Assembly (NCBI GenBank): GCA_024275415.1
Contig: JAJRZD010000042.1
Coordinates: 1-32,000, forward strand
Direction: 5' to 3'
From: an archaeon
GTDB lineage: Archaea > Asgardarchaeota > Thorarchaeia > Thorarchaeales > Thorarchaeaceae
DNA: 32,000 nt
In this document: in pieces, positions 13,965 through 22,092 of the stretch
Layout of the letters: each line of letters starts with the position of its first letter
Position numbering within the stretch: the stretch's first letter is position 1
The notes under the pieces: model-generated
What the model was told of the DNA's origin: nothing
The model's database searches: none
Seen by the model: only the letters and a program-made list of their open reading frames with translations
Made by a program: the position numbers and the translations under genes

Positions 13965-15302
13965 TCATCCTGAAGTGACTTTGACTTCATCTAGTACCAA
14001 CGAGGGTGTGATGATGGAGGAATCTTTGCGAACATCATTTCCAACCCTGCTGACTTTCATGAGGAGTTCTCTCATGTTTATTCCAAACAGGGTGTTCTTC
14101 AAAGGATGGACTAGTTCTCCTCGCTCGATGTAGAAGCCCTCTGTAATCGTAGCACTTAGGTCGCCAGTAGTCATGTTGGGACTGTCCCCGGTATTGATGC
14201 AGAGAACTCCCTTATCTACCTCGGATATAAGGTCATCTAGGCTCCCCGACCCTGGTTGGATGATAAAGTTTGATGAAGATATTGATGGTATCCCTGCGTA
14301 GGAGGGACGGCTCGCACTACCCGTATTCGGAACATCATCCTTGAAGGCAGTATATGAATTGTGCAACAATGACTTCAAAACGCCCCGGTCAAGTACCAAC
14401 GTTCGCTGTGTTGGGAAGCCCTCACCATCATAAGGACCGGAGCCGAGTCCTCCCTTTAATAGGGCATCATCGATGATTGAGAGAGATTCCGAGGCAATTT
14501 GATGTCCTAGACAGTCCGAAATATAGGATCGACCGTATTGTACTTCTTCCGCATCTACAGCACCAGCAAACCCTCCTCCGAGAATGATACGTGCTGCAAG
14601 GGGAGCTAATATGACCGGAAGTGTTCCGCCTTCAATGGTCTTCCCTCCAAGATTACGGACTGCTTTCTTCGAAGCTGTAGAACCAACCCATTCGGGATCA
14701 AGGTCTCGTAGATTCCGAGTAGATTGGTATTCGAAGCTCGACGTTCGGGCATCATCGTTTCGGATTAGTGAAGAAGAGGATATCATTACAGATGCGAGAG
14801 AGATAGTCCGAGATATTCCTAGCGAGTTGGCGATGGCAAAGGTTCCTGCGGAAGCAGCCAGTCGTGCCTCGACAGATACCTCATACTGCCCAACTTCCTG
14901 TAAAGAAGCGTCCACCGTTCTGATAATCAGCTCGGCTGCATCTTCCGGTTGTAACCGGGGTATTTCAGGATCAAATAGTCCTTGGACATCTGGATAACGT
15001 CCTTCATAAGATGGTAGGCTCACAAAATCAGGATCGGGTATTGATGCCTTGGCAATCTTGACAGATTTTGTAATTGCCTCAAGATAGTCAGATTCCTGTA
15101 TCGTTGTCACAAAAGCAAAACCGATTTTTTTTCCAACCACTGAGCGGATGCCAACACCAGCATCACGAATATCCTCGGCGGTCTTGATTGAGTTATTTTC
15201 TACATCTATAGAGAAAGACTTGGTTGATGATACAAACACCTCTGCCTGATGAGCCCCAGACTCCAGTGCCTTGCTTACTGCTTTCTCAGCTATGTCCAAC
15301 AC
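13965..15302 (-). CDS. pmbA: TldE/PmbA, non-catalytic subunit
   Basis: GAHQAEVF, GVGIR, PYDGEG-x-PT, LHNSYTA, TG-x-A-x-R, TGDLS; no HExxxH. Start moved to GTG 15302, just after the tldD stop. Confidence 0.9.
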   Translation of the reverse strand: MLDIAEKAVSKALESGAHQAEVFVSSTKSFSIDVENNSIKTAEDIRDAGVGIRSVVGKKIGFAFVTTIQESDYLEAITKSVKIAKASIPDPDFVSLPSYEGRYPDVQGLFDPEIPRLQPEDAAELIIRTVDASLQEVGQYEVSVEARLAASAGTFAIANSLGISRTISLASVMISSSSLIRNDDARTSSFEYQSTRNLRDLDPEWVGSTASKKAVRNLGGKTIEGGTLPVILAPLAARIILGGGFAGAVDAEEVQYGRSYISDCLGHQIASESLSIIDDALLKGGLGSGPYDGEGFPTQRTLVLDRGVLKSLLHNSYTAFKDDVPNTGSASRPSYAGIPSISSSNFIIQPGSGSLDDLISEVDKGVLCINTGDSPNMTTGDLSATITEGFYIERGELVHPLKNTLFGINMRELLMKVSRVGNDVRKDSSIITPSLVLDEVKVTSG

Positions 15303-15312
15303 TATATTCAGT

Positions 15313-16698
15313 CTACACACCTCCAACAGGGACAGATCGTATTCGTACATGGGGACCACCTGTCGTATCAGGCACCGTCTGGCCAAACTTCCCACATGTG
15401 CCCGCTTCGAGTTCAATGTCCTTGGCAACGGCATCGATTTTAGACAAGATGTCCAATATCTGATTTGCAACGGATACATCGCGAACTAGTTGTCCAAGTT
15501 CACCATTGGTGATTAGGTAACCATGATCTGCTTGGAACACAAATTGCCCTTTAGAGGGATTAGTATAGCCGTAGTTGACACCACATAACAGTAGACCAGA
15601 AGCAGTATCTTCTATCAGTTCTACACTACTCCAGTCCCCAGGTTCCATGAAGGTATTGCTCATCCTAGGAATTGGAATGTCCATGTAAGATTGTGCCCTT
15701 GCAGAGCCATTAGGATGCATCCCAAGCCGACTGGATGTTTCGAGACTATGAAGCAGCTCTTCCAGTCGCCCTTCCTGCACCAACGAGTGTTTCGATGCCT
15801 TGGTTCCCTCCCAGTCATACTCAAACGACCCGCGCAGGTGCGGAAGGGTTGGGTCATCGGTGATAGAAAGGTACTCAGGGCCAACTATTTTGCCAACCTT
15901 GTCCTCAAGCACAGTAGAATGAGCAAGCCAATTGTCGGCTTCACATGCATGGCCGAATGCTTCGTGAGTCATTACACCGTTGAGGGCAGGGTCAAGTATG
16001 ACATCAAAGACGCCCCCCTCGACGGCCTTGCTGTCAAGTAATCGTATTGCGTGCTCTGCTGCGGAAATGCCAATATTCAACGAATCCTCTCGCTGGAACA
16101 CCTCGAACCCACCACGCATGCTAACTGATTTGAATCCACTTTGTCGATTAGTCCCATCCTTAGAGGTGGGAGTGGAAATGATGCGAGGGAGAGAATTCTC
16201 GACATAGACACTGGTTCCGAGTGAGTTTGCGATAAAAAGTTCGACCCACCTCTCGCCATATAACGTATGGGTGTTGACTATGCGAGGATCATAATCTCTT
16301 GCTTGGTCATCAATTGCCTTCACATACTTGACCTTGTCCTCGAAGCTGATGTCATGAAAATGTGTCTTTGGCCGGAACTCCGACTTTCCAGAAAAGGATG
16401 GACCTTCGATCTCAAATCGCTCCGAAGTCTTGGAACGTGTCGCCAGCGCCAGTCTTGCCACAGATATTCCTATTTCCCTCATCGCGTCAGGGGACAAGTC
16501 TGTGGTCTGAGCAAATGCCCAAGCACCATCTATGAATGCACGGATACCTGCACCCTTCGACCTCGATGCAATGGAACCCTTGGAAACCCCATTGGTTATT
16601 TCAATCACCGTGGTTGTGGTGTTCACGATACGGATGTCCGCAAATGAAACGCCAGTGTTTAGTGCTGATTCTATAGCAAGTCGAGCAAGATGTTCCAT
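15313..16698 (-). CDS. tldD: TldD metalloprotease
   Basis: FADIR, THEAFGHACEAD (HExxGH), YDWEGT, NGSARAQSY, PIPRMSNT, CGK-x-GQ-x-VP-x3-GGPH. Start moved to ATG 16698. Confidence 0.93.
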   Translation of the reverse strand: MEHLARLAIESALNTGVSFADIRIVNTTTTVIEITNGVSKGSIASRSKGAGIRAFIDGAWAFAQTTDLSPDAMREIGISVARLALATRSKTSERFEIEGPSFSGKSEFRPKTHFHDISFEDKVKYVKAIDDQARDYDPRIVNTHTLYGERWVELFIANSLGTSVYVENSLPRIISTPTSKDGTNRQSGFKSVSMRGGFEVFQREDSLNIGISAAEHAIRLLDSKAVEGGVFDVILDPALNGVMTHEAFGHACEADNWLAHSTVLEDKVGKIVGPEYLSITDDPTLPHLRGSFEYDWEGTKASKHSLVQEGRLEELLHSLETSSRLGMHPNGSARAQSYMDIPIPRMSNTFMEPGDWSSVELIEDTASGLLLCGVNYGYTNPSKGQFVFQADHGYLITNGELGQLVRDVSVANQILDILSKIDAVAKDIELEAGTCGKFGQTVPDTTGGPHVRIRSVPVGGV

Positions 16699-16714
16699 GT
16701 TTATCGCCCATTGA

Positions 16715-16790
16715 TATGACCGCATCGGCAGTTAGGATTATAATTTCTCTTACGACCGCATATTGTTACGACCATATGTGTTCGACGTAA
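16715..16790. repeat. Short direct repeats TTACGACCGCATAT (16750-16763), TTACGACCATAT (16766-16777) and TATGACCGCAT (16715-16725) in the tldD / steadiness-box gene divergent promoter
   Basis: Read directly; an inverted CGTAA also occurs at 16786-16790. Confidence 0.5.
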
Positions 16791-16847: not shown

Positions 16848-18416
16848 TTGAGAGAAGATTCGATTCGACCGTCTTGCCAAGAGTGTGAGTCAAATCGTGC
16901 AACCCACTACTGTGAAGATTGTGGTGCTGTCTTATGTATGGGCTGCCTTGAGAGCAAGGAAACAGAATACCTGCTTTGCAGAGAGTGTCACACGAACCTC
17001 GGCGACATGACAAAGGAAAGCAAGATCAAGTCCTGTCCGGAGTGTGAATCAGAGGAAGTAGGAAAGGGAAGAAAGGTCGAAGAGATATGCCCTCAATGTC
17101 ACTCGTTGCGAATCCAAAATATCGAAGAGAAACGAAGATCAATAGCCCAACAACTGCGTGCTGCAATCAAACAGCTCCATTATGGGCATACAAAGATACG
17201 CGAGTTCAACAACGCTCTGACTGCGGCTAAGAGACTGCTCTATTCACTCAGGATGGCCAATTTTCTCCACTACAAATGGCTTGAGGACAACATTGAGAGC
17301 TTGCAGGAAGAAACGGTGGCATTGAAGAACCGAGTTATGAACCAAGCAGAGATTGTTGCCAAACGGATCGCAGCAGAAACCAAAGGTCTCATCGACTACA
17401 CCAGATGGACCACTGAGCAGTTCCCGTTCATTGAGGGTGTCACAAACAGAGTGATGCAGATTGGTGAACGGTACAAGAGGAATGTGGATGATGCCTTGCA
17501 GACGGCTAGAGCTGCTCTTGAAGATATCACAAAGCAGTTAGAAGGTCTCGATTATTACAGAAAACGATTTGCTGGGTTCTACGAGGTCACGGAATTAGCA
17601 GTGAACGAGCTACCGGTTTGTGCCCTTCCGGATATACGGATTGCAGGAAGCGATTTCCTCCGGAATGTCAAAGCGAATGGGATACTTTACATCACCAATA
17701 GAAGAATCGTATTCATTGCAGAGATTGGTCTGATGCGCAAGAAGATGGAAGTTATCTTCGACTTCCCACTCATGTATTTGACATCTATCGAAGAGGATGG
17801 TAGATTCCGAAAGAGGTTGATACTCCGGATGAAACAGGGAGATATCAAGATAGCATGCAACGAGCAGACCCAGAAGGTACTGCCTGACTATGTGGAGATT
17901 GGAAGAAGGTTTGAGCGGTATCAGCAAACAGATCTCCAACGTGTGAGGAAAATCGAACAGACTGACACGAATATGAGCGATGTGCGAATAAAAATCGAAA
18001 CACTTGTACACTCACTATTGTCGAGTGATAGACATAGAATAGAAACAACACACACTCCAAGAGAGAGCATCCCCTATGAGAGCTACCAAAAATATGATGG
18101 GGCATATCCTCAGAGCGTGCGTCAACCATACGAGTATCCTTCAAGGCAATATGACCATCCTAGTATGAATATAAGAAGAATTGATTATCCAAGGGGTGTG
18201 AATGCCTACCAAAGAGGAGATCTACACGCCCTGCAGCAAGATGCAATGGAGCTAGAAAAAGCCATCACTGAAACAAAGGAGATGTTCAGGGCAGGGAGAA
18301 TAGTGCCGGAGGACTTCATCCGTAGATACAGAGTACTGATGAGAGATGCCTATGTAACTCAGCAGGAGATAAGGAAATTGCAACGAGGAAGCCGAGAGCC
18401 AGACTGGATGTACTAA
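16848..18416 (+). CDS. Multidomain ESCRT-I-like adaptor: B-box-like Zn finger + Zn ribbon - coiled coil - PH/GRAM/GLUE-like - Pro/Tyr linker - steadiness box (Vps23/37-like)
   Basis: TTG start after GGAGG; six CxxC pairs in residues 10-84; GILYITNRRIVF...FPLMYLTSIEE PH-like core; C-terminal ELEKAITETKEMFRAGRIVPEDFIRRYRVLMRDAY resembles the TSG101/Vps23 steadiness box. Adjacent to ESCRT-III. Confidence 0.75.
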   Translation: MREDSIRPSCQECESNRATHYCEDCGAVLCMGCLESKETEYLLCRECHTNLGDMTKESKIKSCPECESEEVGKGRKVEEICPQCHSLRIQNIEEKRRSIAQQLRAAIKQLHYGHTKIREFNNALTAAKRLLYSLRMANFLHYKWLEDNIESLQEETVALKNRVMNQAEIVAKRIAAETKGLIDYTRWTTEQFPFIEGVTNRVMQIGERYKRNVDDALQTARAALEDITKQLEGLDYYRKRFAGFYEVTELAVNELPVCALPDIRIAGSDFLRNVKANGILYITNRRIVFIAEIGLMRKKMEVIFDFPLMYLTSIEEDGRFRKRLILRMKQGDIKIACNEQTQKVLPDYVEIGRRFERYQQTDLQRVRKIEQTDTNMSDVRIKIETLVHSLLSSDRHRIETTHTPRESIPYESYQKYDGAYPQSVRQPYEYPSRQYDHPSMNIRRIDYPRGVNAYQRGDLHALQQDAMELEKAITETKEMFRAGRIVPEDFIRRYRVLMRDAYVTQQEIRKLQRGSREPDWMY

Positions 18417-19039
18417 ACATCCAGTTCTCGTTCTAGAGCCTTGATGGCTTCCTCAAGCTTCTCAGTTTCATTCAACGGTTTTGCAGTCACGGAAACCTCA
18501 GCTGCGACTCCTGCCTCCGCATCAATCTCAGCCATGGCTGCTGCCAAATCTTCTGAGGTGATTTGGGCGTCCCCGGTCGAATCGAATGCCTCTGCGGTTA
18601 TCCCGCTCTCAATCTCGAATTCTTCCAGACGACGAGCAATCTCATCGACATTCTCAACGACTTTTGTGACATCTGTAGCATCGCCCAATAGGCCAAGTAT
18701 CTTCGCAACTTGATTGAGTGCTTGTGACGCCTTTGCGGTCGTTTGTGCTCGGGTCACATGAGCGAGAATCTTTAGGATTTGCAACCGGGATTTGTCTACA
18801 CCCAAGGCGAATCTTCTGAATCGAACCATCTCACTGGCGTATGTCCTATACGCCTCCAAATTGCCGGTCTTCCTAGCTCGAATTGCTCTGTTCTTTGTGT
18901 CGCGCTCTTCCTTCTCCAACTTGTTTCGTTGTCGCTCAAGCTGTTTGGCCAGTATGCGAAGCTGCGATGTCACCTCATTGATATCAGGTTTTTTTCGGCC
19001 CCATGAGAATGCCTTTCTAAATGCACCCAAAATTCTCAC
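18413..19039 (-). CDS. ESCRT-III subunit, Vps2/24/46 class
   Basis: Amphipathic N-terminus (MRILGAFRKAFSWGRKK), basic hairpin, ARKTGNLEAYRTYASEMVRFRR (compare CHMP2 A-x-KGQ-x-DA-x-K-x2-AKDLVR-x-RR), acidic C-half, MIM1-like EKLEEAIKALERE. Confidence 0.9.
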   Translation of the reverse strand: MRILGAFRKAFSWGRKKPDINEVTSQLRILAKQLERQRNKLEKEERDTKNRAIRARKTGNLEAYRTYASEMVRFRRFALGVDKSRLQILKILAHVTRAQTTAKASQALNQVAKILGLLGDATDVTKVVENVDEIARRLEEFEIESGITAEAFDSTGDAQITSEDLAAAMAEIDAEAGVAAEVSVTAKPLNETEKLEEAIKALERELDV

Positions 19040-19213
19040 CGTCTAAGAGTGGTTATGTCCTATGCTGACCTGTACACCTGTCCATTTAACATTTCGTAGA
19101 GCAAAAGAAACTGAGTGCTTGTACACGATACTTACCAGTTTAAAATAAGTTGGAAAACACACAAAAGAATACCGAAGTTCATAAGTATTCAACGCAAGGA
19201 CACGTGAACTAAG

Positions 19214-20443
19214 ATGTCATCAGACGGCGCTGACCGAGTCGACCAAGGTTTGAAGAATCTACTAGACAAGGCAATTGACCTTGATAACCGGGGCATGAAA
19301 AAAGAGGCATCCCGCTACTATCTGAAAGCTAGCAAGATTCTGATCAAACTGTCCAACTCGGCATCCCTCCCTTCAGTGCGCAAGCACTACTTGAAACGTG
19401 CTCAAGAGTGTGTTGACCGAGTGCGATTCATCTCGGGTATCAAGAATATCGCAAGTTACTCCGTGGATGGCTTGAGCAGGCCAGTTCCGAAGGCATCGCC
19501 CTCCGCAAGTGTAGGTGACGGAAGGAGGGCCGAGGCTATCACAGAAGAGGACGAGGATGCTAAACGTCTGAAGGACATGATTGCAGATACCATAATTTAC
19601 GAGAAACCAAACGTGAAGATGTCTGAAGTAGCAGGATTAGAGGACGCAAAACAGGCGATTATTGATGCCATAATCGCACCTATGAAACACCCTGAACTCT
19701 TCAAAGGTAAAGCAAGACAGCCATGGAGGGGAATACTCTTCTATGGCCCTGCGGGGTGTGGGAAAACTCTGATTGCAAAAGCGGTTGCGTCAGAGGTGGA
19801 TGCGACATTCTTCAATGTTTCAGCAGCAAATATCGTCAGCAAGTGGCTTGGCGAGTCTGAACGGTTGGTGAAGAATCTGTTCGAGATGGCCCGTATGAAC
19901 CAACCTTCCATCGTGTTCGTCGATGAGTTAGACTCTGTAGGTGGAGCGCGTTCGGGCGATGACGTAGGTGGAGAGCGAAGGCTCAAAACACAACTGCTGA
20001 CTGAGATGCAGGGTCTTGCCAGTGTTTCGGAAGACCGTGTTACAGTAATTGGTGCCACAAACTTGCCGTGGGAAATAGATTTTGCACTGCGCTCCAGATT
20101 TGAGAAAAGAATCTATGTGCCATTACCAAATAGGGAAGCACGCAGAAGAATCTTCGAGATTCATATGGAAGATGTCGATATCGAACCAGATGTAAACTTC
20201 GATGAGTTGTCCGACCTTACGGAAGGCTATAGTGGTAGAGATATCAGCGTAATCTGCAGAGAGGCAGCCATGGAACCAATCAGAGACCTTCAGATCTCTG
20301 GGCGCATGGATGACAATGAGGAGATAATCGAGCTGAGAAAAGTATCGCGAGAGGACTTCCTGAAAGCCATCGAGAATATCAGACCGGCAACCTCTCCTGA
20401 GGATCTGAAGAAGTACACGGACTGGGCGGAGGAGGGTTCCTAG
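19214..20443 (+). CDS. vps4: Vps4 AAA ATPase with N-terminal MIT domain
   Basis: MIT (LLDKAIDLD...EA-x2-YY...YL-x-RA); Walker A GPAGCGKT; pore loop SKWLGESE; Walker B VFVDELD; GATNLPW; C-terminal Vps4 helix. No beta-domain. Confidence 0.95.
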   Translation: MSSDGADRVDQGLKNLLDKAIDLDNRGMKKEASRYYLKASKILIKLSNSASLPSVRKHYLKRAQECVDRVRFISGIKNIASYSVDGLSRPVPKASPSASVGDGRRAEAITEEDEDAKRLKDMIADTIIYEKPNVKMSEVAGLEDAKQAIIDAIIAPMKHPELFKGKARQPWRGILFYGPAGCGKTLIAKAVASEVDATFFNVSAANIVSKWLGESERLVKNLFEMARMNQPSIVFVDELDSVGGARSGDDVGGERRLKTQLLTEMQGLASVSEDRVTVIGATNLPWEIDFALRSRFEKRIYVPLPNREARRRIFEIHMEDVDIEPDVNFDELSDLTEGYSGRDISVICREAAMEPIRDLQISGRMDDNEEIIELRKVSREDFLKAIENIRPATSPEDLKKYTDWAEEGS

Positions 20444-20446
20444 CCT

Positions 20447-21163
20447 GTGGGCATGAAAGAGAAACGCAGGGAGAAGAAGACCAAAACGAAGGGTCAAGTG
20501 CGTCCAATAGAAGTAGAAGAGCCAAAGTCACAAAAAATAGGGGAAACATTGGCAGTGCAGCCATCCGAGGACACTACCAGTGGACATGTAGATGAAATAG
20601 TTGAGATAAAATCACACACTGAAACGGTCGCTAAATCGGAGATTGTTACTGAGCCTGAGATTATCCTTCCTTCATGGGGTGATATCACAGAATCGGAGTG
20701 GATGTATTCGATTCCGCCAAGAAAGGAAGACAGTACGATGTGGGCAGAGGAATGGGGAGATTTCCTTTTGGAGTGGGCACAGTCCAAGTCAGTCCATGTG
20801 ATCTCATTATCAACATTCCTGAAAGAAATCCCATTCAAAGATATGGTACGAAAGGTGGATGCGTTTCGCCTCATCGGGGATTGCCTAGTCAAGAAAGAAG
20901 TGGCTGATTGGCTGGACAGGGGAAGACGACAGCTCCGGATATACTGGAAGCCTCTTGAAGAGTGGGCAGATATCCTATACGAGTGGGCTCTCCAGACTGG
21001 GAACACCTTTCTGGATCTGAAGTCAATCATCATTCAAGAGGCAGATGAGGAGTTTGCCAAGCTTCCTGAGAGGGACATCGGAATCCTGTTGTCTATGCTG
21101 GTAGAGAAGGGGTCGGCGGAGTGGATAGATAAGAAGAAGTTCGCGATAAAGATCCAATTCTAG
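20447..21163 (+). CDS. vps25: ESCRT-II Vps25/EAP20 homologue with charged N-terminal extension
   Basis: WMYSIPP...WAEEWGDFLLEW and IYWKPLEEWADILYEWALQTG match the two Vps25 WH repeats (eukaryotic YSFPP...W and W-x2-PEEW-x3-IY-x-W). GGAGGG RBS at 20431-20436. Confidence 0.88.
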   Translation: MGMKEKRREKKTKTKGQVRPIEVEEPKSQKIGETLAVQPSEDTTSGHVDEIVEIKSHTETVAKSEIVTEPEIILPSWGDITESEWMYSIPPRKEDSTMWAEEWGDFLLEWAQSKSVHVISLSTFLKEIPFKDMVRKVDAFRLIGDCLVKKEVADWLDRGRRQLRIYWKPLEEWADILYEWALQTGNTFLDLKSIIIQEADEEFAKLPERDIGILLSMLVEKGSAEWIDKKKFAIKIQF

Positions 21164-22092
21164 GATGAGTCCAGTATATCACGACGGACTTCTGGGGATG
21201 GTGTGTTCTCTTGAGACGTTCTTGTACGCAGTCCGGGGAAGTAGTAGCGGCCTCCAGTACTGAACCTGATGTCAGCAACAGCCATCCCAACATCTACGAG
21301 GCTGGTCAGAACCTGACGCGCGTGTTCCTCAGACCATTTGAACTGGAGCATGATCTCTTCCACGGATGTGTACCCCTTGATTGCAGCAAGATTGACTACA
21401 TCTGCTTGGTCACGCCTCAGCTCCAGTGGACGAAGCTCGACCACCTTCACACCACCGCGCAATGTCCTAATTCCAGGAATAAGCCCGTGCTCTGATACTC
21501 TATTTACGGCCTCGATGACATCGTTGTAGCTAACGGATCTGAACTGTGGCAAGCGTTTCACGACCTCAACAATGAGTTCTGCAAGGCCCATGATCCCCTT
21601 CGATGCATGGATTGTTGCAACATCTAGCACTGCCAGACCAAGCTGGTCATAATATTCATCCAGCGTCAATCCATTCAGCGACTGTTGGGGTTTCCGGTCG
21701 TATAGGTTCAGAAGGGTGGATGCGTCAGGAAACTGCTCGAAGATATGCGCACCATCAAGGAACGTGGCGACATCTATACCCATTCGTCGTAGCTCGTCTA
21801 TTTGGGTTCTAACCTCGTGTACTAGTGCTTCAGATTCCCGACGGTACGAACCAACATCGACAGCGCCAAGGTCGTATATCTTTTTCAGCTGGTCAAGTGT
21901 CGCGATTGATGCAAATAGTTCTGATTGTATGCTCTCGTACATTTGCCACTGACCTTCTGCTAGATAGACTGCACCAAGGATAGGAAACGCGGATTGACCT
22001 TTAAGGGATAGTATTATGTGGTTTATACGAAGCAGGTTGATGTCCGAATCGTCAGAGATACCATGTTTCAAATCATTCAGAGTTAAGGGCAT
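21160..22092 (-). CDS. Vps28-N-like / Vps22-36 (EAP30) fusion protein
   Basis: C-terminal half DEYYDQLGLAVLDV...KGIMGLAEL...ELRRDQADVVNLA...GYTSVEEI...KWSEEHARQVL...GMAVAD...YYFPGL matches EAP30. Residues 50-128 (YESIQSELFASIATLDQLKKIYDLGAVDVGSY...F...P-x-A) match the Vps28 N-terminus. Confidence 0.85.
   Translation of the reverse strand: MPLTLNDLKHGISDDSDINLLRINHIILSLKGQSAFPILGAVYLAEGQWQMYESIQSELFASIATLDQLKKIYDLGAVDVGSYRRESEALVHEVRTQIDELRRMGIDVATFLDGAHIFEQFPDASTLLNLYDRKPQQSLNGLTLDEYYDQLGLAVLDVATIHASKGIMGLAELIVEVVKRLPQFRSVSYNDVIEAVNRVSEHGLIPGIRTLRGGVKVVELRPLELRRDQADVVNLAAIKGYTSVEEIMLQFKWSEEHARQVLTSLVDVGMAVADIRFSTGGRYYFPGLRTRTSQENTPSPEVRRDILDSS

Follow-up and report, generated by a model that had tools for sequence, protein, structure and literature searches.

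How is an ESCRT pathway wired in an archaeon whose ESCRT genes stand without a ubiquitin or UEV module? The window analysed here, a 32,000-nucleotide stretch of a Thorarchaeota contig, contains a five-gene cluster that the original prediction had read as ESCRT-I, -II, -III and Vps4 functions connected by unusual domain fusions. All five ORFs are present where they had been placed and have the identities first given to them, and there is no ubiquitin or UEV gene within the window, as had been claimed. The cluster is a standard, conserved ESCRT membrane-remodelling locus of Thorarchaeota, an Asgard lineage without ubiquitin. The domain fusions had also been read correctly, and the doubt about their publication is settled: cluster and domain architecture have already been published (PMC9192718; PMC10936438 and its Table S3). 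It is likely that the pathway encoded by this conserved Thor locus remodels membranes with ESCRT-I and ESCRT-II covalently joined and with ubiquitin recognition missing. The features of the locus, with gene calls scored against the Pfam curated cut-offs, are as follows.

16848..18416, + strand: Znr_CC_PH_SB adaptor, 522 aa, ESCRT-I-like subunit (asCOG cog.011556 family)
16869..17120, + strand: N-terminal zinc module of the adaptor, aa 8-91 (12 invariant Cys, six CxxC pairs)
17121..17588, + strand: coiled-coil/long-helix stalk, aa 92-247 (AF2 helices)
17610..17927, + strand: GRAM/GLUE-type PH domain, aa 255-360 (VIA-align; weak Pfam GRAM and bPH_3)
18201..18389, + strand: steadiness-box (SB) helical hairpin, aa 452-514 (AF2, homologues, hhalign)
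18413..19039, - strand: ESCRT-III of the Vps2/24/46 (ESCRT-IIIA) class, 208 aa (Pfam Snf7 42.5 bits, E 7e-11)
19214..20443, + strand: Vps4 AAA+ ATPase, 409 aa (Pfam AAA 137 bits, AAA_lid_3, Vps4_C 33 bits)
20447..21163, + strand: Vps25 (ESCRT-II), 238 aa (Pfam ESCRT-II 53.3 bits, residues 87-187)
21160..21942, - strand: Vps28N-Vps22 fusion, 260 aa from its probable start (homologue alignment, human SNF8/Vps22 profile match)
21208..21669, - strand: Vps22 core of tandem winged helices, aa 92-245 from M51 (Pfam EAP30 54 bits)
21691..21942, - strand: Vps28-N domain, aa 1-84 from M51, a helical hairpin with additional helices (hhalign, structure, AF2)

From 5′ to 3′ the genes are thus arranged as adaptor (+), ESCRT-IIIA (-), Vps4 (+), Vps25 (+) and Vps28N-Vps22 (-). 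The 4-bp overlaps of convergent stop codons that had been pointed out before are both real, one being CTAA at 18413-18416 (adaptor/ESCRT-III) and the other CTAG at 21160-21163 (Vps25/Vps22). They are not conserved: the corresponding genes in relatives abut or stand 16-80 nt apart, and the overlaps are particular to the source genome, unlike the ThorAB25 cluster described below. Within the window the cluster is flanked by genes for TFB, ArgRS and two TldD/PmbA proteins, and by AspRS. The synteny comparison proposed with the original prediction showed that TFB, ArgRS, both TldD/PmbA genes, the five ESCRT genes and AspRS are kept in identical order in both of the other Thorarchaeota genomes examined (L049 and L050).

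Domain assignment of four of the five products was direct, as Snf7, AAA/AAA_lid_3/Vps4_C, ESCRT-II and EAP30 all scored above the curated cut-offs. The nearest solved relatives of ESCRT-IIIA are CHMP1B, CHMP1A, CHMP2A and CHMP3. The MIT domain of Vps4 scored 25.3 bits, under the Pfam cut-off of 30, and the N-terminal ∼85 aa of Vps25 appear to be low-complexity and charged. A genome-wide search for a Vps20/32/60 gene, also proposed earlier, yielded one ESCRT-IIIB, unlinked to the cluster, on contig 28 (G000:C28:3768-4460), whose nearest solved relative is the Heimdall ESCRT-IIIB 9ftl (E 5.8e-10). In addition, an 810-aa EAP30 paralogue is present at L051:692-3124. This protein could be a second ESCRT-II arm, and the chain may therefore not be minimal.

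The longest Vps22 ORF runs to 22092. Most likely, however, the gene starts at the ATG at 21942, which is residue M51 of the long ORF, because ∼40 homologues have their first residue at this position and residues 1-50 of the long ORF are unconserved, even among relatives with 81-87% identity. This start was read from an alignment of 14 homologues and has a Shine-Dalgarno-like GAAGGT 9 nt before it. The protein matched human SNF8/Vps22 by profile (E 5e-20) and 2zme_A by Foldseek (E 9.6e-9), and its winged-helix core aligned with 3cuq_A (VIA-align Z 12.3, model residues 92-241).

Pfam VPS28 gave no direct match to this protein and Pfam Vps23_core none to the adaptor, and both domains were therefore established by other means. 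Vps22 residues 5-82 matched Asgard VPS28 ORFs in BLASTP (n=16, the ORFs that pass Pfam VPS28) with E 5e-16 to 1e-9 and 29-38% identity, and in hhalign the region matched the same 16 ORFs with a probability of 99.2% (E 3.6e-19). In the AF2 model the hairpin helices 2-24 and 30-53 have pLDDT 83-94. When the model was ranked against 48,161 chains with VIA-align, human Vps22 came first and the human ESCRT-I headpiece 6vme_E second, the N-terminal domain aligning with the latter at Z 11.2 and rmsd 2.0 Å over 78 residues, in a type of search where helical hairpins reach high structural scores by chance. Together these results provide strong evidence that the N-terminus of this Vps22 is a Vps28 N-terminal domain, and the fusion of Vps28-N to Vps22 proposed before is borne out.

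In the fusion, Vps28-N replaces the usual N-terminal helical region of Vps22, and the Thor N-terminus has no similarity to the N-termini of other Asgard Vps22. A six-frame HMM scan of the genome detected one Vps28-N and one SB but no C-terminal bundle of Vps28 in any part of it. Full-length matches to the fusion (residues 1-245) were obtained in the source genome and in 12 of 13 sampled members of its family, and among 101 sampled genomes the Vps28-N form of Vps22 is confined to this family. Outside the family the winged-helix part alone matches Vps22, and the N-terminal part matches a separate vps28 just upstream of vps22. As the two genes are adjacent and co-directional in other Asgard lineages, an in-frame deletion between them that took away the C-terminal bundle of Vps28 together with the N-terminal helices of Vps22 would explain the fusion.

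The adaptor starts with a TTG at 16848, a start that holds because it is preceded by GGAGG and because C10 and C13 are invariant among homologues. We found 163 homologues, nearly all labelled Thorarchaeota (47-70% identity). The AF2 model has a mean pLDDT of 80.4, and the Pfam matches (B-box, GRAM, bPH_3) are all weak. The invariant cysteines of the zinc module (C10, C13, C22, C25, C30, C33, C44, C47, C63, C66, C81 and C84) would suffice for three Zn sites, of which the first and second appear to be cross-braced (B-box/FYVE/RING-like) and the third is a Zn ribbon. The module matched Pfam B-box with E 6.6e-4, under the cut-off, and the family profile matched FYVE, RING and B-box chains weakly (E 0.02-0.3); by eye, the FYVE-like cross-brace lacks the basic PI3P-binding motif. 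The stalk consists of helices 92-108, 111-136, 143-178 and 189-240, with pLDDT mostly 80-96. The PH domain aligned with the MTMR2 PH-GRAM (Z 12.6, rmsd 2.8 Å, 107 aa), Lam6 (Z 11.4) and the human EAP45/Vps36 GLUE domain 2hth_B (Z 11.1, rmsd 3.8 Å, 108 aa) in VIA-align.

A disordered linker (aa 396-451) precedes the hairpin, whose helices 452-481 and 487-514 have pLDDT 94-97. Several lines of evidence, weaker than those for Vps28-N, support its identification as an SB. Full-length homologues from other Asgard families match Pfam Vps23_core at the equivalent site, two of them above the cut-off, and the hairpin aligned in register with Asgard Vps23 SB in hhalign (E 0.0017, probability 15%). The direct sequence signal is weak: the hairpin was the only match of an Asgard SB HMM to the six-frame genome, at E 0.17, and the profile search of the PDB gave E 1.4. 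The proposal of an SB carried on a Zn/coiled-coil/PH protein is nevertheless supported. The adaptor family occurs in Asgard families f12 and f16, and homologues in other Asgard families sit 3-12 kb from vps28 and vps22.

Complex prediction of SB with Vps28-N, another check proposed at the outset, gave an ipSAE of 0.69, compared with 0.00-0.02 for controls. Of 80 solved complexes 58 attain this mark, as do 2 of 110 mismatched pairs, counts that are only a rough guide here because we supplied our own alignments. Three runs shared at least 94% of contacts, with partner pLDDT of at least 73. On the adaptor, 6 of the 14 predicted interface positions are conserved, compared with 13 of the 63 positions of the whole hairpin. 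The conserved interface residues are R481, E488, F490, Y494, M498 and R499 on the adaptor and E8, A11, S12, A14, T15, Q18, L19, S32, E36, L40 and E65 on Vps22. The SB hairpin is thus predicted to pack against the Vps28-N hairpin, as Vps23 does on Vps28 in the eukaryotic headpiece; since that headpiece is already solved, the predictor may be reproducing a known complex.

No ubiquitin, E2/UEV, Vps28 or Vps23_core was found in the source genome, nor any separate canonical UEV-Vps23/Vps28/ubiquitin set; as the genome is 92.9% complete, these absences are unproven. In sampled genomes of the source family, ubiquitin was found in 0 of 26 (107 of 151 Asgard genomes), VPS28 in 0 of 13 (64 of 101 Asgard genomes) and E2/UEV (UQ_con) in 0 of 6 (47 of 61), each search carrying a positive control within the same phylum. 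All three are present in most other Asgard families. Other Asgard operons (Heimdall-, Odin-, Hel- and others) contain UEV-Vps23, Vps28 and Vps22, with Vps22, Vps25, Vps4 and ESCRT-III orthologous to those of Thor. Unlike Thor, these lineages have retained ubiquitin, E2 and UEV-Vps23, and they encode a full-length Vps28 directly upstream of vps22.

The eukaryotic headpiece consists of the Vps23 SB, Vps28-N and Vps37, and ESCRT-I is linked to ESCRT-II by the Vps28 C-terminal domain binding the Vps36 NZF/GLUE region. The Thor system resembles it in the SB/Vps28-N hairpin pairing, by fold and predicted complex, and shares the downstream order Vps22, Vps25, ESCRT-III, Vps4. It differs in being without a UEV domain, Vps37, a Vps36 proper and the C-terminal bundle of Vps28; a peptide bond stands where eukaryotes have the non-covalent Vps28-Vps36 link, and the PH/GLUE-like domain is on the ESCRT-I-like subunit instead of on ESCRT-II. 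By analogy with the eukaryotic pathway and with published Asgard yeast two-hybrid results, the adaptor would sit on membrane or cargo, with its PH domain and Zn fingers as putative sensors, and its SB would recruit Vps28N-Vps22. Vps22 would carry Vps25, which would nucleate ESCRT-IIIB, ESCRT-IIIA then joining, and Vps4, by way of MIT-MIM contacts, would take the polymer apart.

In eukaryotes, ubiquitin is recognised by the GLUE domain of Vps36 and by NZF fingers. A pathway still directed by a tag, with a SAMP/ThiS/MoaD-type beta-grasp protein, activated by a single E1-like enzyme, marking cargo and the GLUE-like PH domain or Zn ribbon of the adaptor reading it, is quite unlikely. The genome does encode one ThiF-type E1 (C122, 201 bits) together with five small proteins of the ThiS/MoaD type, which makes a ubiquitin-like tag of another kind possible, and the human EAP45 GLUE, a ubiquitin binder, is among the structures that align with the PH domain (Z 11.1 and 10.3). 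However, ThiF and ThiS were found in 11-12 of 14 control genomes, where their role is sulfur transfer, and their presence therefore says little. None of these genes is linked to the ESCRT cluster, the GLUE match ties with many PH domains and is exceeded by MTMR2 PH-GRAM, and the sampled genomes of the family yielded no E2, UEV or ubiquitin.

It is also unlikely, if less so, that the chain is as described and serves mainly cell division or abscission, like Cdv in TACK archaea, in place of cargo sorting or budding. In that case the adaptor would mark the division site as CdvA does, and the sequence similarity reported between SB and CdvA hairpins (Makarova 2024, PMC10936438; Lu 2023) fits this, as does a single-copy cluster among housekeeping genes conserved across the family. 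ESCRT-II and an ESCRT-I-like adaptor, however, typify the sorting branch and not Cdv, and Makarova et al. 2024 (PMC10936438) place the Asgard systems with protein sorting. Weak direct SB signals, chance structural scores of helical hairpins and the ability of complex predictors to pass through likeness to solved complexes would all be compatible with unpaired hairpins, the adaptor hairpin self-associating as a generic antiparallel coiled coil and the adaptor being a mere neighbour gene outside ESCRT. We consider this very unlikely given its position next to ESCRT-IIIA in both other Thor genomes, the proximity of its homologues to vps28 and vps22, the near-zero complex controls, the enrichment of conserved residues at the predicted interface, and its handling as a Thor ESCRT-I subunit in the yeast two-hybrid of Hatano et al. 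2022 (PMC9192718).

The preferred reading, of a covalently joined ESCRT-I/II pathway, agrees with published work. In Hatano et al. 2022 (PMC9192718), an equivalent cluster, ThorAB25_08990 to 09030, was cloned from Thorarchaeote AB_25, ubiquitin is reported missing in Thorarchaeota, and Thor Vps22 is reported to self-associate. The gene families there match ours (08990, SB; 09000, ESCRT-IIIA; 09020, Vps25; 09030, Vps22), 09010 is presumably Vps4, and the locus-tag spacing fits our gene order. Vps22 of AB_25 begins at the position equivalent to M51, and its SB is a ∼500-aa Zn/coiled-coil/PH/SB protein like our adaptor, sharing by eye the motifs LVSLRMANFLHY and ELPVCALP. The source genome is distinct from AB_25; in the databases, its adaptor has its closest homologues at 70% identity and its Vps22 at 81-87%. 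Makarova et al. 2024 (PMC10936438) defined the Znr_CC_PH_SB family (asCOG cog.011556), which has the domain order of our adaptor (three Zn sites, coiled coil, PH, SB), and predicted an ESCRT-I role with a membrane-associated PH domain. Their Table S3 assigns Thor Vps22 KXH75178.1(1-70) to PF03997, VPS28 N-terminal (HHpred probability 99). They describe fusion to an SB as general among Asgard Vps22 proteins (cog.002769), whereas the non-Thor N-termini showed no similarity to Vps28-N. Our additions to this picture are small: the limit of the fusion to one family in the genomes sampled, the replaced Vps22 N-terminus, the putative deletion origin and an SB-like candidate for a third hairpin. The last is a small conserved protein that possibly fills this place.

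Five ORFs occupy positions 16848-22092 on strands +, -, +, +, -, as the original prediction had it, and four of them were identified by Pfam matches above the curated cut-offs. The genes, and the parts of the adaptor encoded by the first of them, are listed below.

The ESCRT gene cluster and the regions of the adaptor
16848-18416, + strand: adaptor, 522 aa; weak B-box, GRAM and bacterial-PH Pfam matches
18413-19039, - strand: Snf7 (ESCRT-III); Pfam match above the curated cut-off
19214-20443, + strand: Vps4; AAA, AAA_lid_3 and Vps4_C above cut-off, MIT sub-threshold
20447-21163, + strand: Vps25/ESCRT-II; Pfam match above the curated cut-off
21160-22092 (long ORF), - strand: EAP30/Vps22; Pfam match above the curated cut-off
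Adaptor aa 1-91: zinc module (AF2 model)
Adaptor aa 92-247: long helices, coiled coil (AF2 model)
Adaptor aa 256-353: PH domain, a beta-sandwich plus helix (AF2 model)
Adaptor aa 396-453: disordered linker (AF2 model)
Adaptor aa 452-514, C-terminal: steadiness-box (SB) hairpin, pLDDT 94-97 (AF2 model)

The window is contig 20 of a 3.53 Mb assembly (127 contigs, 92.9% complete), and almost all adaptor and Vps22 homologues carry the label Candidatus Thorarchaeota. The cluster is flanked by housekeeping genes (TFB, ArgRS, two TldD/PmbA genes and AspRS), and gene order and flanks are identical in two other Thorarchaeota contigs. The 4-bp overlaps between the stop codons of the convergent pairs are indeed present (CTAA at 18413-18416 and CTAG at 21160-21163); small gaps at the equivalent sites in relatives indicate, however, that this packing is particular to the window's genome. 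The two TldD/PmbA ORFs (13965-15479 and 15313-16725, both - strand) overlap by 167 nt as listed, and as the first of these genes would encode 504 aa against 449-462 aa in relatives, its start is probably over-called.

The Vps22 gene was correctly recognized in the original prediction, but its start at 22092 was not upheld. Alignment of Vps22 homologues placed the start of the conserved protein at M51 of the long ORF, residues 1-50 being unconserved even among relatives that are 81-87% identical, and a GAAGGT motif lies 9 nt 5' of the M51 ATG. Together, the alignment and the motif indicate that the gene most likely spans 21160-21942 and encodes 260 aa; Vps22 residues are numbered from M51 hereafter. 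The ThorAB25 sequences printed in Hatano et al. 2022 (PMC9192718) belong to the same families as the cluster, and Vps22 begins there at the equivalent of M51. The TTG start of the adaptor stands: it is preceded by a GGAGG motif, and all 42 homologues have C10 and C13. The 492-aa version of the adaptor in the protein collection is truncated.

Vps25 matches the Pfam ESCRT-II winged-helix family with 53.3 bits (cut-off 27). Vps4 combines one AAA+ domain (AAA 137 bits, AAA_lid_3 51 bits) with the C-terminal helix (Vps4_C, 33 bits) and an MIT domain whose score of 25.3 bits is under the cut-off of 30 but which is placed as expected, at residues 15-73. The ESCRT-III protein has the Snf7 fold (42.5 bits) and is of the Vps2/24/46 class (ESCRT-IIIA), being nearer CHMP1/2/3 than Snf7/CHMP4/6: among solved structures it is closest to CHMP1B, CHMP1A and CHMP2A, then to an archaeal CdvB (Vps2-like) and CHMP3, and none of these is Snf7-class.

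Neither the adaptor nor Vps22 matched Vps23_core or VPS28 when scanned directly with Pfam, six-frame Pfam scans of the genome were likewise negative, and homology was therefore assessed through Asgard intermediates. VPS28 (PF03997) matches above cut-off were present in 64 of 101 Asgard genomes, and 16 of these ORFs were extracted. Residues 1-90 of the Thorarchaeota Vps22 matched the 16 Asgard Vps28 sequences by BLASTP over about 76 residues (29-38% identity; E 5e-16 to 1e-9, values that refer to a database of 16 sequences), and residues 4-84 matched Asgard Vps28 by hhalign with a probability of 99.2% (E 3.6e-19). When an HMM of Asgard Vps28 was run against the 28,526 six-frame ORFs of the genome, Vps22 was the sole match (E 1.2e-15), and only the N-terminal half of the HMM was covered. 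In the AF2 model, a hairpin of two helices (residues 2-24 and 30-53; pLDDT 83-94) is followed by short helices and two winged helices. An exhaustive VIA-align comparison of this model with 48,161 PDB representatives ranked human Vps22 first (3cuq_A; Z 12.3, model residues 92-241) and the human ESCRT-I headpiece second (6vme_E; Z 11.2, rmsd 2.0 A over 78 residues, model residues 1-80). Chain 6vme_E is probably VPS28, judging from its residue numbering (34-112) and the constructs used. The hairpins were missed by whole-model Foldseek searches, in which winged helices and helix-plus-PH proteins dominate, but revealed by VIA-align, and profile matches to the PDB sequence of yeast Vps28-N were suggestive at most (E 0.09-0.2). 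Together these results bear out the original prediction that a Vps28 N-terminal helical-hairpin domain is fused to ESCRT-II winged helices.

The remainder of the protein is a tandem winged-helix EAP30 core (54 bits; cut-off 26.8) that by profile is closer to Vps22 (human SNF8, E 5e-20) than to Vps36 (E 0.57). [quoted passage not shown] This indicates that the protein is a Vps22 with a Vps28 domain and not a Vps28. The canonical N-terminal helices of Vps22 are absent: the Thorarchaeota N-terminus has no likeness to those of 16 other Asgard Vps22 proteins (hhalign 0.3%, hmmsearch nil), the latter show no similarity to Vps28-N either, and the Pfam EAP30 match begins only at profile position 77. 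The dissimilarity of the two kinds of N-terminus argues that Vps28-N replaced the canonical helices rather than being added to them.

The adaptor (AF2 mean pLDDT 80.4) has the composition of the Znr_CC_PH_SB family (cog.011556), which Makarova et al. 2024 (PMC10936438) defined and proposed to be an ESCRT-I component whose PH domain is membrane-associated. Its N-terminal zinc ribbons contain 12 Cys residues, arranged as six CxxC pairs, that are invariant in the 42 homologues and could hold three Zn ions; they are followed by the coiled coil, the PH domain and a C-terminal Vps23_core-like hairpin. The PH domain resembles MTMR2 PH-GRAM (Z 12.6, rmsd 2.8 A, 107 aa), Lam6 (Z 11.4) and the ubiquitin-binding GLUE domain of human Vps36/EAP45 (Z 11.1) almost equally, and hence the only justified label is a PH fold of the GRAM/GLUE kind.

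Direct signals for the steadiness box are weak: the adaptor itself is below Pfam significance for Vps23_core, and the profile match to yeast Vps23 SB has an E-value of 1.4. Against Asgard Vps23 SB, hhalign gave an E-value of 0.0017 in the correct register, at low probability, and with an Asgard SB HMM the adaptor C-terminus was the sole match in the genome (E 0.17). Full-length adaptor homologues, encoded by ORFs of about 500 aa, occur in two other Asgard families (21-26% identity, E 6e-55 to 3e-28); the C-termini of these homologues from outside Thorarchaeota match Pfam Vps23_core, two of them above cut-off (31.0 and 28.8 bits against 26.8). These matches and the confidently modelled hairpin agree with the original placement of an SB on a Zn-finger/coiled-coil/PH protein. 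Weak matches to an HMM of the Thorarchaeota SB on contig 9 (205 aa) and contig 43 appear to be generic coiled coils.

The adaptor has the zinc module at its N-terminus in place of the ubiquitin-binding UEV domain of Vps23/Tsg101, and neither a UEV nor a UQ_con match is present in the genome. The adaptor is not a Vps23 orthologue. Members of its family are also encoded in archaeal families that retain ubiquitin, UEV-Vps23 and Vps28, and hence it is not a Thorarchaeota invention but an older ESCRT-I-like module, now the sole SB-bearing partner left in Thorarchaeota. In one of these other families (f12; G022:C133, G067:C8 and G096:C19) the adaptor homologue lies 3-12 kb from a vps28-vps22 pair, indicating that the link between adaptor and ESCRT genes predates the Thorarchaeota arrangement.

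Complex prediction with Vps22(1-90) and adaptor(445-522), each supplied with its own alignment, gave an ipSAE of 0.69 against 0.02 for the best control. For comparison, 58 of 80 solved complexes attained this mark, as did 2 of 110 mismatched pairs; these counts are approximate here because own alignments were used. The runs share at least 94% of contacts, with partner pLDDT of at least 73. The adaptor SB is thus predicted to pair with Vps28-N, as was originally proposed, with helix 2 of the SB (aa 480-506) contacting both hairpin helices of Vps28-N. On the adaptor side, conserved residues occupy 6 of 14 interface positions, an enrichment over the 13 of 63 in the whole hairpin, and the predicted interface is specific and testable by mutation. 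As the Vps23-Vps28 headpiece has already been solved, the score may reflect likeness to it and not independent evidence of binding.

No Pfam match to ubiquitin, UEV, UQ_con, VPS28 or Vps23_core was detected in the 92.9%-complete genome. Phylum-wide scans served as positive controls: ubiquitin (PF00240) was found in 107 of 151 Asgard genomes and in 0 of 26 of Thorarchaeaceae, UQ_con (E2/UEV, PF00179) in 47 of 61 and 0 of 6, and VPS28 in the 64 of 101 mentioned and 0 of 13. The absences therefore hold across the sampled family, in line with the original view of a ubiquitin-free system. The genome has one E1-like ThiF and five ThiS-type ORFs, unlinked to the cluster; these are near-universal sulfur-transfer genes. 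Two other families (f17 and f20) are also mostly without ubiquitin, E2 and Vps28, f17 in addition being without Vps22 (0/5), and the single sampled genomes of f6 and f11 gave no matches either. The scans agree with the report that some Asgard classes are without ESCRT (Makarova et al. 2024, PMC10936438). UEV-Vps23 has been described as absent from Loki- and Thorarchaeia (Lu et al., bioRxiv 10.1101/2023.07.25.550441), and Hatano et al. 2022 (PMC9192718) call ubiquitin seemingly missing from Thorarchaeota.

When the 260-aa Vps22 was used as query against 101 Asgard genomes, full-length matches were obtained only in Thorarchaeaceae (12 of 13 sampled genomes, plus the window's genome). The exception, G087, has the large EAP30 paralogue only, possibly owing to an assembly gap. 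In other families the winged-helix part alone matches Vps22, and the N-terminal part matches a separate vps28; this gene directly precedes vps22 on the same strand and itself follows UEV-Vps23. We infer that an in-frame deletion from the end of the Vps28 N-terminal domain to the start of the Vps22 winged-helix core generated the fusion; a deletion between the adjacent genes would yield exactly the Thorarchaeota gene.

By analogy with the eukaryotic pathway and the Asgard yeast two-hybrid results of Hatano et al. (PMC9192718), where self-association of the Thorarchaeota Vps22 is also reported, the PH domain and Zn fingers of the adaptor would bind membrane or cargo, and the adaptor would recruit Vps28N-Vps22. 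Vps22 would then recruit Vps25, which would nucleate ESCRT-IIIB; ESCRT-IIIA would join the polymer and Vps4 would disassemble it.

A second ESCRT-III protein, of the Vps20/32/60 class (ESCRT-IIIB; 230 aa), is encoded on contig 28 of the window's genome (G000:C28:3768-4460, + strand; locus L052:3768-4460). It matches Pfam Snf7 (66.9 bits), its solved relatives include Snf7 and, as the best, Heimdall ESCRT-IIIB (9ftl), and it is unlinked to the cluster, its neighbours being an inositol monophosphatase and a HAD hydrolase. The same contig encodes an 810-aa EAP30 paralogue (G000:C28:45491-47923, + strand; locus L051:692-3124), in which a long N-terminal region with a coiled coil and an Ig-like CarboxypepD_reg-type domain precedes a C-terminal EAP30/Vps22 module (35.6 bits). 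The EAP30 match starts at profile position 32, so that more of the N-terminal region is kept than in the cluster Vps22 (position 77). Paralogues 777-890 aa long are encoded by further genomes of the family and also in one other family, and an Atlas search with the N-terminal part gave only unnamed archaeal clusters. The protein could be a Vps36-like second arm of ESCRT-II. An EAP30 match on contig 43 falls in the winged helix of an MCM helicase and is not ESCRT. There was also a match on contig 106 (E 0.04); this contig encodes a 1056-aa UPF0182-family membrane protein (G000:C106:38782-41949, - strand; locus L056). Weak matches cover residues 315-379 of this protein, one to the CdvA-like coiled coil of Pfam (below cut-off, E 0.002) and one to the Asgard Vps28 HMM in its hairpin part (E 0.15), and are probably due to chance likeness of coiled coils.

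The original observation is thus confirmed and its interpretation supported, and the finding is on record. Makarova et al. 2024 (PMC10936438) assigned residues 1-70 of the Thorarchaeota Vps22 KXH75178.1 to the VPS28 N-terminal domain (PF03997, probability 99; Table S3) and described Vps22 fused to an SB. Hatano et al. 2022 (PMC9192718) list ThorAB25_08990 ('SB'), 09000 (ESCRT-IIIA), 09020 (Vps25) and 09030 (Vps22) among their yeast two-hybrid proteins; the Thorarchaeota fusion is unmentioned in a structural-clustering preprint (PMC13734099). As the fusion, the adaptor family and the ubiquitin-less case have been published, the finding is correct but known, and the window provides another genome copy. 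Asgard ESCRT bears on the origin of eukaryotic membrane trafficking, and Thorarchaeota are the natural case of ESCRT-I/II-like parts persisting without ubiquitin. What is added here is a quantitative confirmation of the Vps28-N and SB assignments, together with the evidence that the canonical Vps22 N-terminus was replaced, that the fusion is confined to one family among the sampled genomes, and that it fits an in-frame deletion. The 810-aa paralogue and a small SB-like protein are additional leads outside the window.

This small helical protein of about 110 aa (G000:C73:68108-68440, + strand; locus L057:1504-1836) is present in all 31 sampled genomes of the family (46-70% identity). Its neighbours, a transporter and ZnuA, are uninformative, and it is unlinked to ESCRT genes. 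An SB-like motif, G-x-I-x3-E-F-x3-Y-R, lies in its helix-turn-helix, and hhalign matched the protein to the adaptor SB (probability 73%, E 3e-5) and to Asgard Vps23 SB (E 0.0016). SHOCT-type hairpins, however, resemble the motif as well, Pfam gave only sub-threshold GvpG and SHOCT-like matches, and profile searches of the PDB returned generic coiled coils only. We see two possibilities for the protein: a free-standing third hairpin, or a SHOCT-type protein that is unrelated. From the profile matches it might replace Vps37 in a three-hairpin, ESCRT-I-like headpiece built of non-canonical parts, together with the adaptor SB and Vps28-N, but we consider this unlikely. If it does, this headpiece and the covalent ESCRT-I/II link would constitute a natural, ubiquitin-independent, minimal ESCRT-I/II.
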